Assembly: GCA_964016885.1 (NCBI GenBank)
Contig: CAXHJY010000315.1
Coordinates: forward strand, 1-64,000
Source: Eledone cirrhosa
Taxonomy: Eukaryota
DNA length: 64,000 nucleotides
Direction: 5' to 3'
In this document: piece by piece, positions 22,120 through 50,895 of the stretch
Layout: every line of letters begins with the position of its first letter
Position numbering within the stretch: the stretch's first letter is position 1
Notes under the pieces: model-generated
Seen by the model: the letters and a program-made list of their open reading frames with translations, nothing else
The model's database searches: none
What the model was told of the DNA's origin: nothing
Made by a program: the position numbers and the translations under genes

Positions 22120-22313
22120 AGGAACAAGTATGACCCCGACGGCAGAGCTCAAGCCGTTTTCGACGGCTAATTCAGTCCAGAATAGCCGTCGAAACGGCTT
22201 GAGCTCTGCCGTCGGGGGTCATACTTGGTCCTATTACCCACTCTACTACCCTAAGTATTGAGTACTTTGGTGCGTTATGGTCCATCTGGTTGCTTACCAC
22301 GTTTCCTTCGTTA
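22120..22313 (+). mobile_element. Family A foldback element with hammerhead 3' half
   Basis: Inverted arm, then TAGCCGTC-GAAAC-GGC ttgagctct GCC-GTC-GGGGGTC (22191-22220), then an 80-nt tail. Confidence 0.9.
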
Positions 22314-22667
22314 TATATATATATTACTAAAACTCTGTGATTGCGTGCTTGTCTTTAATGTAATATAGCCAAAACTGGCGCATAATGGGAAAAACACTTT
22401 GAAAATAATTTTCAAATGAAATGGGAATACAAATGGAATAAAACAAGTTTTGCGTAAATCGAAGCACGGGACCTCGAGATACGGGATTTTTCTGCGTACC
22501 TTCATAAATAGCAAACAACTCCGTGATAACCTATAACGCTCTCTATATATTATAACTCCCTCTCTCTCTATAATAACCCTCTCTCTTTTTATATATTATA
22601 ACCCTCTATATATATAAAATATATATATATATATTTTTTTTTTTTATATCGATATTTGTTTCGGGCA

Positions 22668-22789
22668 TCCACTGATGATTTATAAGTGCCCACCTACATA
22701 TATTCCTACGGACTATGTGTCGGCTTCTACATAACCTGGACATTATTTTCCCAATTTGTAGAAACTTATAATGAAACGATCGTTATGGA
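22668..22789 (+). ncRNA. Type-I hammerhead ribozyme with long stem-II insert, family H
   Basis: TCCA-CTGATGA-T TTATAAGT...ACTTATAA T-GAAAC-GATC-GTT-(A)TGGA. The second copy (36074-36342, -) reads GTT-TGGA without the extra A. The element extends to about 22970. Confidence 0.7.
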
Positions 22790-23052
22790 AAAAGAGATGT
22801 ATTTTAATTATGTCTCATATAAATTAATACAACTGGCTATCCGCAAAATACGTATAGTTAGCACCCCAAACGTATAATTGGGATTGTACTAAGGTATATC
22901 CTAATGTTTGTTGAGTGAGACGGAAGCCGGTCGGAGTATTGCTTAAAGCTTTCTCTGTTAATGTATTAAATATATAAATATATATATATTACTAGACTAT
23001 CCGTGACCAAACGGGTCATGGGTGGTCTAGTACATAATAAATATATACTCAT

Positions 23053-23460
23053 ATGGCTGTGTGGTTGAAGAGTTTGCTAAGCAATTACGTGGACTCGGGT
23101 TCGGTCCAACCACGTGGAATTTAGACAAATGGTTTGTCAGACAATTTTGGCTAACGGAAACTGTACAAAAGTTACATCAGACATATAAATACGTATGTGT
23201 CTACATTTCAGTATGGCATATATATGGTTTATTGTAGTTGTTGGTGTTTTGGGGCTTTCGTCATCTCTAACGTGTAATGATCCAGTTGATTCAATCAACA
23301 GAACTGTTTATCTAGGAAATTAAAGTATAAGTAGCTGAGCATTTCACAGACACGTGCACCATTAACGTAGGTCACAGAGAAATTTAATTTTTTTTATATA
23401 ATACGTGACAAAGTTGGGTCCTTCAAATACAGATACAACTCATTTTTGCCAACTGAGTAT
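23053..23460 (+). mobile_element. Old, different tRNA-derived SINE or composite
   Basis: A-box-like TGGCTGTGTGGT and B-box-like GGTTCGGTCC, followed by a degraded body. Confidence 0.5.
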
Positions 23461-25398
23461 GTTGCGTCTGTTATATCTTCTGATAAAAATTATCAGAGAT
23501 CTGACTGACGTTACAGTCACATTGAGTCTTACATGTCACAGTCACATTGATCCCTGTATCAAGAACTATAGATCAAATTGAATCCTGCACGAAGACAGGA
23601 AGAAATCAAAATTCTTTTATGCCGACCAACATGAACATACGTGTGATGCATCGTTCGATTCCCCGAAAGCATTTCTCTCTACATTTTTTCTCTCTCCAGG
23701 GATTTAACTAGTAACATATCCATCTCTTTCTCTCTCTCTCTCTCTCTCTCTATATATATATATATATATATATATATATATACCTCCCCCACACACATAT
23801 ATGTGTGTATATATATATATATATATATATATATATATATGAACCTCCCTCCGCTCAAACTAAACTTCAACATATAGTGTTTGTGAGTGTTGGAATGTGT
23901 GTATGTATATATGTATATATATATATATATATATATATATATGTATATATGTGTGTGTGTGTGTATATATATGTGTGTATGTGTATATATATGTGTATAT
24001 ATATGTGTATATATATGTGTGTGTGTGTATATAAATGTGTATATATATGTGTGTGTGTATATATATGTGTGTGTGTGTATATATATGTGTGTGTGTGTAT
24101 ATATATGTGTATATATATGTGTTTGTGTGTATATATATGTATATGTGTGTGTATATATATGTGTATATATATATGTGTGTGTATATATATGTGTATATAT
24201 ATATATATCTGTGTGTATATATATGTGTATATATATGTGTGTGTATATATATGGGTATATATATGTGTGTGTGTGTATATATATGTGTATATATATATAT
24301 ATATGTATATATATATATGTATATATATATATGTGTGTGTATATATATATATATATATATATATATATATATATATATATATATATATATATATTTATAC
24401 AAAGATAGACTTATGTTGAGTAATATATATATAGAGAGAGCGAGCGAGTGTGTGAGAGTTTAATAATCTAACGTAATATATGAGAAATATGTAAGTATTC
24501 ACAAATGCATAGATTGCGTTTCCAACCAAAAATAGAAATTTAGAAGTCTGCATAGAAATGAAGGTGAACTACTAAAACGAAATTTGGCAATGTTGTAGTG
24601 TGACTGATATTGAATAAATAATAATTAGTATTATTATCATAACAGAAAAAAGATGTGAGTGGTGGACATAAATTGAAACATTCCACCACAAATAGAGAGA
24701 GGGGGGAGAGAGAGAGGAGGGGGGAGTGTGTCAGATTGAAGTCGGTGGTTTGTGTGTGTGTGTGTGCTTGAGAGAGGGGAGGGAGAAAGAGAGAGTGGTA
24801 CAGAGAGAGAGAAATAGAAGTCGGTGGTGTGTGTTTGTGTATGTGTGCGTGTATGTGTGTATGTGTGTAAATGCGTGTGTATCTGAGAGAGAGAGTGTGT
24901 GTGTGTGTGTGTGGAACAGAGAGAAAGAGAGAAATGGAAGTCGGTGATGTGTATGTGTGAATGTATATGTGTGTCTGAGAGAGAGAGAGAAAGAGGTGCG
25001 TGTGTTTGTATATGTGTGTGTATGTATGCGTGTGTATGTGAGAGAGAGAGAGGGGTGGAAATAGGTGTTGTGTGTGTGTTTGTGTATGCGTGTGTGTGAG
25101 AGAGAGGGGGTGGGAATAGGTTGTGTGTGTTTGTGTATGTGTGTGTATGTATGCGTGTGTGTGTGTGTGAGTGTTTGTGAGTGTTTGTGTATGTATGTGT
25201 GAGATAGGAGTTTTGGCTGATGAAACTGTGGCGTTGGAAAGAGATGGATTGATGGAAAAAGAAAGAAAAAGAGAGGACATGGAAAGAGAGAATAATGGGA
25301 GTGGTTAGAGGAGAGAGCTATATATATATATATATATATATATATATATATATATATATATATTGATATATGTATGTATATTGATATATGTATGTATA

Positions 25399-49800: not shown

Positions 49801-49912
49801 CACATCTTTGAAAGTCCTTATACACAACAAAAACACCGCCAGAATTATCCCACATACATACAAACGAATGTATACACACATATACAACTTTGAAAGTGCT
49901 TACACACAACAA
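46841..49912. repeat. 82-bp satellite, about 37 copies
   Basis: CTTTGAAAGTCCTTATACACAACAAAAACACCGCCAGAATTATCCCACATACATACAAACGAATGTATACACACATACACAT. The ORF track repeats every 82 nt. Confidence 0.97.
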
Positions 49913-49973
49913 ACATATATATATGTATATGTGTTTATAAATATATATTTATATATATATATATATAAAATAT

Positions 49974-50479
49974 AGTTAAATAAAAAGTCAAATGTTTAAA
50001 ATTTAGCTTCGTTTATTACTGCTATATATATTTCAGTGACAGCCATCTTTGGCTGTGACCTCTTCAGGCAGTTTGAATTAGTATGGTATAGACAAGTACA
50101 TATGTTGTTGAGGTGTATAATATTGTCAATACTCTGATATGCCCAGTTCCTGGTTGGGTTGTTATTTCACTGAGGAACTGGAATAACAACCCAACCAGGA
50201 ACTGGGCATATCAGAGTATTGACAATATTATACACCTCAACAACATATGTACTTGTCTATACCATACTAATTCAAACTGCCTGAAGAGGTCACAGCCAAA
50301 GATGGCTGTCACTGAAATATATATAGCAGTAATAAACGAAGCTAAATTTTAAACATTTGACTTTTTATTTAACTTTATTTTACATTACTCCGGAGTAACC
50401 AAACCAACCTGCGCACTTCGTCGAGTGCTCCAGCCTGCAAACTGAGGTGTTGGTATACAACCAACATAAACTCAAAATC
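49974..50479 (+). mobile_element. Family C foldback element, about 192-bp arms plus about 105-nt tail
   Basis: 49974-50166 versus 50182-50373 with a 15-nt spacer, and TA runs on both sides. Confidence 0.9.
50276..50330 (+). ncRNA. Type-I hammerhead ribozyme, family C (mirror copy 50018-50072 on -)
   Basis: ACTGC-CTGAAGA-GGT C ACAGCC aaagat GGCTGT C ACT-GAAA-TATATA-TA-GCAGT. Confidence 0.88.
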
Positions 50480-50496
50480 TATATATATATATATAT

Positions 50497-50895
50497 AATA
50501 CGATATTAATAAATGGAAACTCTATTTATAAAACCATATTTATTTCATTATACATATTTCAAGGACACCAAGTCAAATTATGGTGTGCTTTCATCAGATA
50601 AAATATAATATATAAAATAAAATATATATATCCAGGAGCTTCCAACTGCAATGGTTGCATTCTTTAAGGGTATGTCAATATTTATTTATAAAACTGCTCT
50701 ATATTATATTTTATCTGATGAAAGCACACCATAATTTGACTTGGTGTTCTTGAAATATGTATAATGAAATAAATATGGTTTTATAAATATAGTTTCCATT
50801 TATTAATATCGTATTTTTACGCCAATTATTTGTTGAGTGCTTTATATCAGTTATAAAAATATTTGCTTGTTGTATCCCAACAATTTAAATAGAAC
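50497..50895 (+). mobile_element. Family D foldback element, about 116-bp arms plus about 80-nt tail
   Basis: 50497-50612 versus 50700-50815. Confidence 0.9.
50707..50771 (+). ncRNA. Type-I hammerhead ribozyme, family D (mirror copy 50541-50605 on -)
   Basis: TATTTTAT-CTGATGA-AAG C ACACCA taatttgact TGGTGT T CTT-GAAA-TATGTA-TA-ATGAAATA. Confidence 0.85.

Follow-up and report, generated by a model that had tools for sequence, protein, structure and literature searches.

Repeat ends in the window

The window analysed here is a stretch of 64,000 nucleotides (nt) from the genome of Eledone cirrhosa (contig CAXHJY010000315.1; assembly size 3.0 Gb), about half of which consists of simple repeats. 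It holds several families of short, 5'-truncated repeats, each a head-to-head inverted pair with one arm extended, lying within (TA)n, and near their ends these families share the motif (Y)RTYGAGYR. In Hydra-clade Penelope-like retrotransposons (Penelope-like elements, PLEs), this motif forms the 3' side of a bulged stem, and copies of these elements end 6-9 nt 5' of such a stem, at a TA matching the (TA)n target.

The original prediction had singled out eight 10-mers, all of which are present at their coordinates and on their strands. Their similar spacing from the terminal simple-repeat run also held, but with a measured range of 41-59 nt instead of 40-56 nt: counted from the end of the 10-mer, the distance is 46 nt in family A, 52 in H, 41 in B, 57 in the family at 41076-41085 (family x), 51 in C, 59 in D, 52 in E and 43 in F. 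The terminal run is generally TA, as had been claimed, but (TC)n in family F. The motif does not lie in an unpaired tail, as had been supposed; instead, it pairs with RCTC 7-87 nt upstream. The features of the window that bear on the motif are the following, with loop lengths in square brackets:

22122..22231, no strand: inverted, 5'-truncated arms (hairpin) of family A, by self-BLAST; the left arm terminates at the 'short' end
22240..22263, + strand: family A stem 1, ACTC TACT [6] AGTA TT GAGT, whose 3' strand is the motif at 22256-22265; tail terminates at 22311
22863..22916, + strand: family H stem 1, ACCC CAAACGT [30] ATGTTTG TT GAGT, with one C-A core mismatch; tail end about 22970
32381..32467, - strand: family F stem 1, ACTC TGTA [69] TACA TT GAGT; tail end 32336 in (TC)n
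33850-33936: identical duplicate of family F stem 1
36593..36613, - strand: stem 1 of a further family (F37), GCTC TGT [5] ACA TA GAGC ACTCT; tail end 36535
39698..39801, no strand: inverted arms of family B, by self-BLAST, with hammerhead cores at 39753-39776 (+) and 39723-39746 (-)
39819..39837, + strand: family B stem 1, ACTC TGC [3] GTA TT GAGT; tail end 39880
41078..41101, - strand: family x stem 1, ACTC ... TG TT GAGT, weak in the window copy; tail end 41019
41128-41171, + strand: family x hammerhead core, in the inverted arm
44409..44469, - strand: family E stem 1, ACTC TGA [45] TCA TT GAGC; tail end about 44355
44481-44962: inverted arms of family E, by self-BLAST
49968..50380, no strand: inverted arms of family C, a 413-nt palindrome, with hammerhead cores at 50281-50318 (+) and 50030-50067 (-)
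50387..50426, + strand: family C stem 1, ACTC CGGAGT [18] ACTTCG TC GAGT; tail end 50479
50715..50756, + strand: family D hammerhead core, with an inverted copy at 50556-50597
50819..50838, + strand: family D stem 1, ACGC CAA [4] TTG TT GAGT; tail end 50899
61298-61317: second copy of family D stem 1
11563-11586, 39951-39974 and 40190-40213, + strand: copies of family A stem 1
14863-14886, 35647-35670, 36972-36995 and 42944-42967, - strand: copies of family A stem 1
36128-36181, - strand: copy of the family H stem

The stem at 36593..36613, from a family missing in the original prediction, has a compensatory G-C outer pair. The consensus stem of family D starts with ACTC (ACGC in the window copy), relatives of family x have a clear stem with CAG/CTG or CGG/CCG inner pairs, and the outer A-C mismatch of family E is present in all close copies seen. 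Hammerhead cores lie upstream of the motif in families B, C, D and x. Among the best 150 of 348 Rfam matches, none in the window reaches the gathering score, and only simple-repeat noise was returned.

Enrichment of the motif at repeat ends

The predicted positional enrichment was confirmed outside the window, with permuted motifs and shuffled families as controls. A sample of 77 random 10-kb stretches from this genome, with 1,264 junctions that have a (TA)4 run, contains YRTYGAGYR 45 times in the zone 35-65 nt before the runs. None of 299 letter-permuted motifs reaches this count (mean 3.2, maximum 22), and the antisense motif has no comparable peak in the same zone of these stretches. The raw counts are inflated because many hits are copies of one family: 19 of the 45 lie at exactly 47 nt, and family A copies weigh heavily.

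At the level of families, the test set comprised 87 end-family consensuses from 1.55 Mb of random sequence plus the window, many of them short ends, reverse readings, short interspersed nuclear elements (SINEs) or other repeats. The bulged stem lies 20-75 nt before the end in 15 of the 87 (13 without two doubtful families, F19, which is family D read backwards, and F78, which has a non-U bulge), compared with a mean of 2.3 and a maximum of 8 in 100 shuffles and with 5 on the reverse strand. The motif was found at 160 of 2,971 random junctions (a count without control), and motif-bearing ends in the Eledone cirrhosa genome number of the order of 100,000 or more.

The elements belong to the Hydra clade

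Judged by protein motifs read by eye, families A, B, C, F and a D-like family are Hydra-clade PLEs. Hydra-type open reading frames (ORFs) join family A (L183, L247, L366), family B (L368-L375), family F (L100, L367) and the D-like family (L058, L082, L088); F46, a subfamily related to F, combines a Hydra ORF with stem 2, the second stem described below (L100, L367). A GIY-YIG domain precedes the ends of family C by about 1.2-1.4 kb, and the 892-amino-acid ORF of this family (L051) encodes reverse transcriptase (RT) and endonuclease (EN). No ORF link appears for families H, E and x in the sampled data. The families had been called otherwise dissimilar, which holds for their DNA but not for their proteins, through which they are related.

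The N-terminal RWK motif appears as RMRWK in family C, RLRWR in A, RIRWR in B and RVRWR in F, and the DKG to DKT change as ADKT in C and SDKT in B and F. A CxCx5C linker precedes the C-terminal GIY-YIG EN, which has CxxC and CxH around its E and N, and there is no CCHH. The Pfam GIY-YIG match for one EN (L011) has an E-value of 0.0011, below the cut-off, and the whole L051 ORF gives no Pfam hit. Insertion is into (TA)n, and hammerheads are present in 43 of 66 3' regions from other hosts. The tendency of Hydra elements to be short (<3 kb) does not extend to the units found here, with tandem units of 3.53 kb in A and 6.65 kb in F and about 4.1 kb from ATG to end in C. Two Argonauta proteins are among the named proteins closest to the element ORF.

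A first assignment to Neptune was ruled out, the CX2-5CxxC linker and CCHH being absent from the A, B, C and F ORFs; the label was dropped because the ORF motifs, compared with those described in PMC8557442, fit Hydra. A link of family D to an EN at L225 was given up because that EN belongs to family F, and a second stem read by eye in family F8/F11 turned out to be a separate family, F59.

Family A has no canonical CTGANGA hammerhead core; the core is missing also from a young tandem unit whose ORF is intact (L366:210-290). It keeps the 3' half of a hammerhead (helix, then CGAAAC), so that its ribozyme is either variant or lost. Apparently intact Hydra tandem arrays were seen at 49.53-49.56 Mb of C6 and at 183.74-183.76 and 437.20-437.21 Mb of C1 (genome G000), with periods of 6.65 kb (F) and 3.53 kb (A) and many 830-amino-acid ORFs; the arrays and ORFs point to recent Hydra activity.

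Sixteen EN remnants of other PLE clades, recognised by eye, lead to the end families F11/15/16/27, F50/61, F65/86, F23/26/38 and F28, and the stem is absent from all of them. Of 18 stemless families examined for the literal motif, one contains it, at a distance of 124 nt from the end. Within the PLE sample, the stem is confined to the Hydra clade. A separate abundant hammerhead-bearing repeat (end families F3, F5, F8 and F57, about 100 junctions) has no stem, nor a linked ORF in the sample.

Twin stems in full-length units

In tandem units the order is hammerhead, stem 1, 33-59 nt, stem 2, 10-66 nt, ATG. Full-length family C has the 892-amino-acid ORF (L051) and a stem 2 that begins six nt after the long end (L053). 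For family A, the predicted stem 2 has 356 pattern matches in the genome compared with none for the reversed-pattern control; TATCTA or a close variant separates the end from stem 2 among the 100 matches listed, and a 3.53-kb tandem unit (L366) holds both stems and a Hydra ORF. The stem 2 of family F (L100, L367) encloses about 100 AT-rich bases, with GTATGT inside and TTTAG just before the bulge. This insert is possibly an intron of the 5' untranslated region (5' UTR), the removal of which would break the inner pairs.

Other hosts were reached with an alignment of 40 protein relatives, which fetched 97 Hydra-like loci from metagenome contigs and contigs of metagenome-assembled genomes (MAGs); 56 of them have at least 70 nt upstream of the ATG and 51 are non-redundant, all selected solely on their protein. 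Of the 51 5' regions, 43 have stem 2 no more than 60 nt from the ATG (shuffles: 1.35, maximum 6), and 36 have stem 1 at 65-125 nt from the ATG. Both stems are present in 30 of the 43 5' regions with at least 140 nt upstream, all from marine hosts, with stem 2 beginning 33-59 nt after the GAGY of stem 1. Viral contigs yielded no Hydra relatives, nor did a first metagenome scan with a narrow N-terminal alignment. Hydra-type ORFs at L347-L365, from marine hosts, stand on contigs filed in bacterial MAGs, one of them (L349) inside a 492-kb contig; these contigs are most likely host DNA. In the passages of the published consensuses covered, stems occur in Hydra-2_Amil, Hydra-1_Ajap (both, followed by ATG) and Hydra-2_Ajap, a variant stem in Hydra-1_Crog and none in Hydra-1_Obim.

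Structure and covariation of the stem

The stem can be written RCUC-[inner helix, loop of 3-100 nt]-UH-GAGY-RCU. When sites in other hosts were anchored on the 3' strand alone, the upstream CTC was found at 80 of 81. Although pairing was not required in the selection, inner positions 1-3 are Watson-Crick in 69/80, 43/70 and 33/44 cases, more than in any of 2,000 shuffles each (maxima 57, 33 and 21). All four pair types occur at inner positions 2 and 3, and the outer pair is G-C, A-U or U-A. A 19-row alignment, whose rows were of similar length and chosen as stems, which leans toward structure, has 97.7% paired cells and 25 double changes, values that none of 500 shuffles reached.

With the bulge letters left free, the first base is U in 72 of 73 stems and the second is U in 43, C in 21 and A in 9, but never G; with the helix letters left free, 59 of 61 have GAG and 2 have GUG. 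The bulge is 2 nt long in 43 cases, and 0, 1, 3 or 4 nt long in 1, 1, 4 and 4. Covariation and bulge tallies alike count related sequences more than once. In one third of the junctions, CTC/GAG shows the largest excess of 2-nt bulges among the 64 possible 3-bp cores. Beyond the helix, the flank after GAGY is kept without a pairing partner (R in 72, C in 77 and T in 75 of 81), and the last base of the partial palindrome GAGYRCT is C in only 45 of 81.

RTYGAGYR is found within the last 135 nt of 7 of the 18 stem-bearing families and in 59 of 75 stems from other hosts, so that the literal consensus (Y)RTYGAGYR of the original prediction describes a real motif but is too narrow for many stem-bearing families. 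A local hairpin inside the 10-mer fits families A and C only and was dropped. Natural variants of the core, TCTC/GAGA with a TCT flank and GCAC/GTGC, occur at L274, L284, L290, L349 and L352 and could serve as built-in specificity mutants.

For 68 stems of other hosts, the core-pair probability on folding has a median of 0.74 and exceeds 0.5 in 51; antisense folds of the same stems exceed 0.5 in 39, and the medians are alike on both strands. The minimum-energy fold of family A includes both stems.

The end rule and head-to-head insertions

The position of the end relative to the stem was read from run-on pairs, from loci with an end bounded by (TA)n and, in addition, a copy that runs on. In other hosts the stem follows 6-9 nt after the end in 9 of 12 such pairs, and two of the other three are mere repeat variants. 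In this genome 13 end families have a modal offset of 5-8 nt; a SINE family and a questionable single hit are among the 13. Stem 1 lies this modal distance beyond the short ends of A, B, D, F, F17, F20, F30, F37 and F72, and stem 2 lies 6-7 nt beyond the long ends of C and F; for the short end of family A (F2), 22 of 24 run-on copies have stem 1 at offset 8. Immediately past the end, a TA is read in 7 of 9 pairs of other hosts and in A, B, C, D and F.

Head-to-head pairs mostly combine one long and one short end, with one arm stopping before stem 2 and the other before stem 1. Among the 12 stem families, in the random sample plus the window, this is so for 69 of 72 classifiable pairs (p ~1e-17 compared with free choice), with 176 arms left unpaired; two of the remaining pairs have two short ends and one has two long ends.

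Other features of the window

Two stretches of 753 nt, 32336-33088 and 33805-34557, are 100% identical and lie about 1.47 kb apart, and a further identical pair, 31963-32170 and 33426-33633, has the same spacing. These copies reflect either a very recent tandem duplication or an assembly duplication, which doubles one F and one A copy. A tRNA-like SINE-type repeat, putatively a cephalopod SINE, has many copies (19500-20520, 37310-37499 and 45144-45720), and a minisatellite of about 65 nt lies beside the family C hairpin (48500-49900).

What the stems are likely to do

The twin stems in the element RNA probably act as binding sites that position the reverse transcriptase. A conserved cis-signal of PLE ends, with RT recognition as one option, had been part of the original prediction, and position, covariation and the end rule support it. 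The element protein, perhaps as a dimer, would nick both strands of the (TA)n target, and each nicked 3' end would anneal to a UA a few bases 5' of one stem. Each stem would seat the RT active site, so that the (TA)n end primes 6-9 nt upstream and one unit templates two complementary DNAs in opposite directions. The arm primed at stem 2 would copy stem 1 and the spacer, and the one-sided 'tail' would be the result, whereas stem 2 would never be copied into an end. With two priming sites at the stems, the 41-59 nt distance of the motif would be the stem spacing. The invariant bulged U may form a U-A-U base triple read by a protein arginine, a suggestion drawn from the local likeness of the stem to the trans-activation response RNA (TAR) of the human immunodeficiency virus (HIV); the R-x-R-W-K motif, conserved in the N-terminus of the 40 proteins, is a candidate reader, judging by sequence.

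Several observations weigh against this reading. In naked-RNA folding, the core-pair probability is 0.05-0.22 in the window tails of A, B, C and E, and both stems of family C are absent from the minimum-energy fold. Wobble pairs (7 G-U vs 6 A-C) do not pick the folded strand. Families H and E have one core mismatch each, F36 has a bulge of 1 nt, and two elements have GUG in place of GAG. By junction call, the short end of family C lies 13 nt before stem 1; the head-to-head count excludes 19 of 91 pairs with an unclassifiable end; and the anchor test finds no stem 2 in 8 of the 51 5' regions. For family B the stem-2 prediction failed, with a single match in the pattern search: what comes 9 nt beyond its long end is a simple GCAC-UCUCU-GUGC hairpin that has no bulge, through which 160 run-on matches lead into the Hydra ORF. 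A DNA search for family B returned no candidates, the window copy likewise being missed.

Instead of starting points, the stems might be stop signals on an antisense RNA template, where synthesis halts 6-9 nt before them as at a telomerase template boundary. An antisense template has been proposed for Penelope elements (PMC3846280), the wobble statistics and median pairing probabilities favour neither strand, and the core mismatches of H and E would become G-U on the antisense strand. Such a reading is nonetheless unlikely: the TA that follows the ends fits priming by the (TA)n end, the sole purified PLE protein uses sense RNA (PMC11167929), and core pairing is above 0.5 more often in sense than in antisense folds (51 vs 39 of 68).

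The resemblance to TAR also admits a role in transcription or translation, with stems near the RNA 5' end recruiting an arginine-rich protein of the host or the element to enhance elongation or translation, and the end rule arising from something nearby. The local match to the arginine-sandwich bulge of TAR and 7SK and the placement of the stems directly upstream of the ATG would suit this role. It is improbable, as it leaves the constant 6-9 nt offset unexplained when the spacing varies from 33 to 59 nt and the loops from 3 to 100 nt; moreover, the TAR apical loop has no counterpart, the Hydra loop lying on the opposite side of the bulge and not being conserved.

If the conserved part were instead a DNA site, the partial palindrome GAGYRCT read by the GIY-YIG endonuclease, it would fix the cutting or resolution of an intermediate. 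The flank kept without a pairing partner speaks for such a site, Drosophila Penelope endonuclease needed the tail to recognise plasmid DNA (as cited in PMC11167929), and tails have previously been ascribed to EN resolution (PMC8557442). We consider this unlikely, given that the covarying inner pairs and the variable loop length imply that a folded single strand is needed. In addition, stem 2, which sets the long end, is missing from the inserted end, and the last base of the palindrome is poorly kept.

The other options of the original prediction, a core-promoter element (initiator or downstream) or a splice signal of the pseudo-long terminal repeat (pLTR), fit poorly and are very unlikely. 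Splice sites have a GT donor and a YAG acceptor; the motif has no invariant GT, most copies lack GT before it, and G stands at -3 of the AG. Although the pLTRs of Penelope and Chlamys hold a promoter, a start site and a 5' UTR intron (PMC8557442) and the ATG follows the motif by 15-120 nt, each unit contains two copies of the motif, which have a covarying partner at a variable distance. Chance resemblance or passive inheritance without function, for which one could invoke the common Hydra ancestor, the recurrence of short motifs in AT-rich DNA and the many chance clusters in the 3-bp core scan, is largely refuted by compensatory changes, by the permuted, shuffled and reversed-pattern controls and by a core near-invariant across distant hosts amid unalignable DNA, and has next to no probability left.

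Within the preferred reading, in which the stems position the reverse transcriptase, we tentatively entertain a more specific form, which has the odds somewhat against it: two TAR-like arginine-sandwich bulges on one RNA might seat a dimeric, telomerase-related RT and prime both nicked (TA)n strands at once. If so, the head-to-head arms and the one-sided tail would arise in a single step, tail length would be a read-out of stem spacing, and a TAR-type motif would have arisen independently in an ancient retroelement as a start-site ruler.

Significance and novelty

We regard the stem as a genuine cis-element that has not been described before, in a retrotransposon of a known kind, and the mechanism proposed for it can be tested directly. 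The Hydra clade, the inverted arms, the one-sided tail and the two internal start sites are already published. In the literature outside subscription papers, Repbase entries and figures, no description was found of the twin stem, the offset rule or the TAR likeness; they are missing from the parts covered of PMC8557442 (including parts of its supplement), PMC11167929, PMC4209133, PMC3846280, PMC13282606 and bioRxiv 10.64898/2026.07.22.740005. The origin of the one-sided tail and inverted copies of PLEs has been open since their description, and the sole in-vitro PLE study, in the portions covered, names no sequence signal. The 4-bp core, the U-led 2-nt bulge and the 6-9 nt offset define a minimal template and exact mutations, and the clade has many intact young ORFs in this genome. 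PLE RTs are the closest relatives of telomerase RT, so that a defined RNA anchor bears on the evolution of template use. In addition, the motif marks Hydra ends for repeat annotation.

Comparison with known systems

The published account of the Hydra clade (Craig et al. 2021, PMC8557442) gives the RWK and DKT motifs, the CxCx5C linker, CxxC and CxH without CCHH, hammerheads and (TA)n targets. The protein motifs, hammerheads and targets are common to the elements described here, which differ in having units of 3.5-6.7 kb rather than <3 kb and tails of 60-130 nt rather than 30-40 nt.

The purified Poseidon PLE protein (Anolis PAc; Frangieh et al. 2024, PMC11167929) uses a sense RNA template, on which it initiates at two internal sites flanking the tail; it cleaves both strands, and a dimer is predicted. 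It resembles the Hydra elements in its two internal starts downstream of the hammerhead, its AT-rich target and a binding region near the ORF start (PMC11167929). Poseidon PAc belongs to another clade, however, and its starts lie in an AC-rich stem-loop inside the ORF, non-homologous to the cut DNA; in the parts of that paper covered, no conserved sequence or twin element is named. Hydra ends, by contrast, are found before the ATG, at a TA, and keep a constant distance from two similar stems.

Arginine binding by TAR depends on an essential U23 with free or deletable neighbours and on the unswappable pairs G26-C39 and G28-C37 around A27-U38, and HIV-2 TAR has a natural 2-nt bulge (PMC11885821, PMC6189040). 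The Hydra stem is like TAR and 7SK in the first bulge U, the free second base and the G-C, A-U and G-C pairs that follow. It is unlike them in that the bulge is on the 3' strand with the loop on the other side, the host is a retrotransposon and the arginine triple is putative. Two Hydra elements have GUG/CAC, which the TAR/7SK core does not.

The RTs of long interspersed nuclear elements (LINEs) of the R2 and L2/CR1 types are recruited by 3' stem-loops, and the epsilon stem of hepadnaviruses acts likewise. In these systems a structured RNA binds the RT and sets the start of copying, as proposed here for the Hydra stems. The LINE stem-loops and epsilon occur singly, at the RNA end or close to it, or work with protein priming, whereas Hydra elements have two internal stems downstream of the presumed starts, one of which would be left uncopied.

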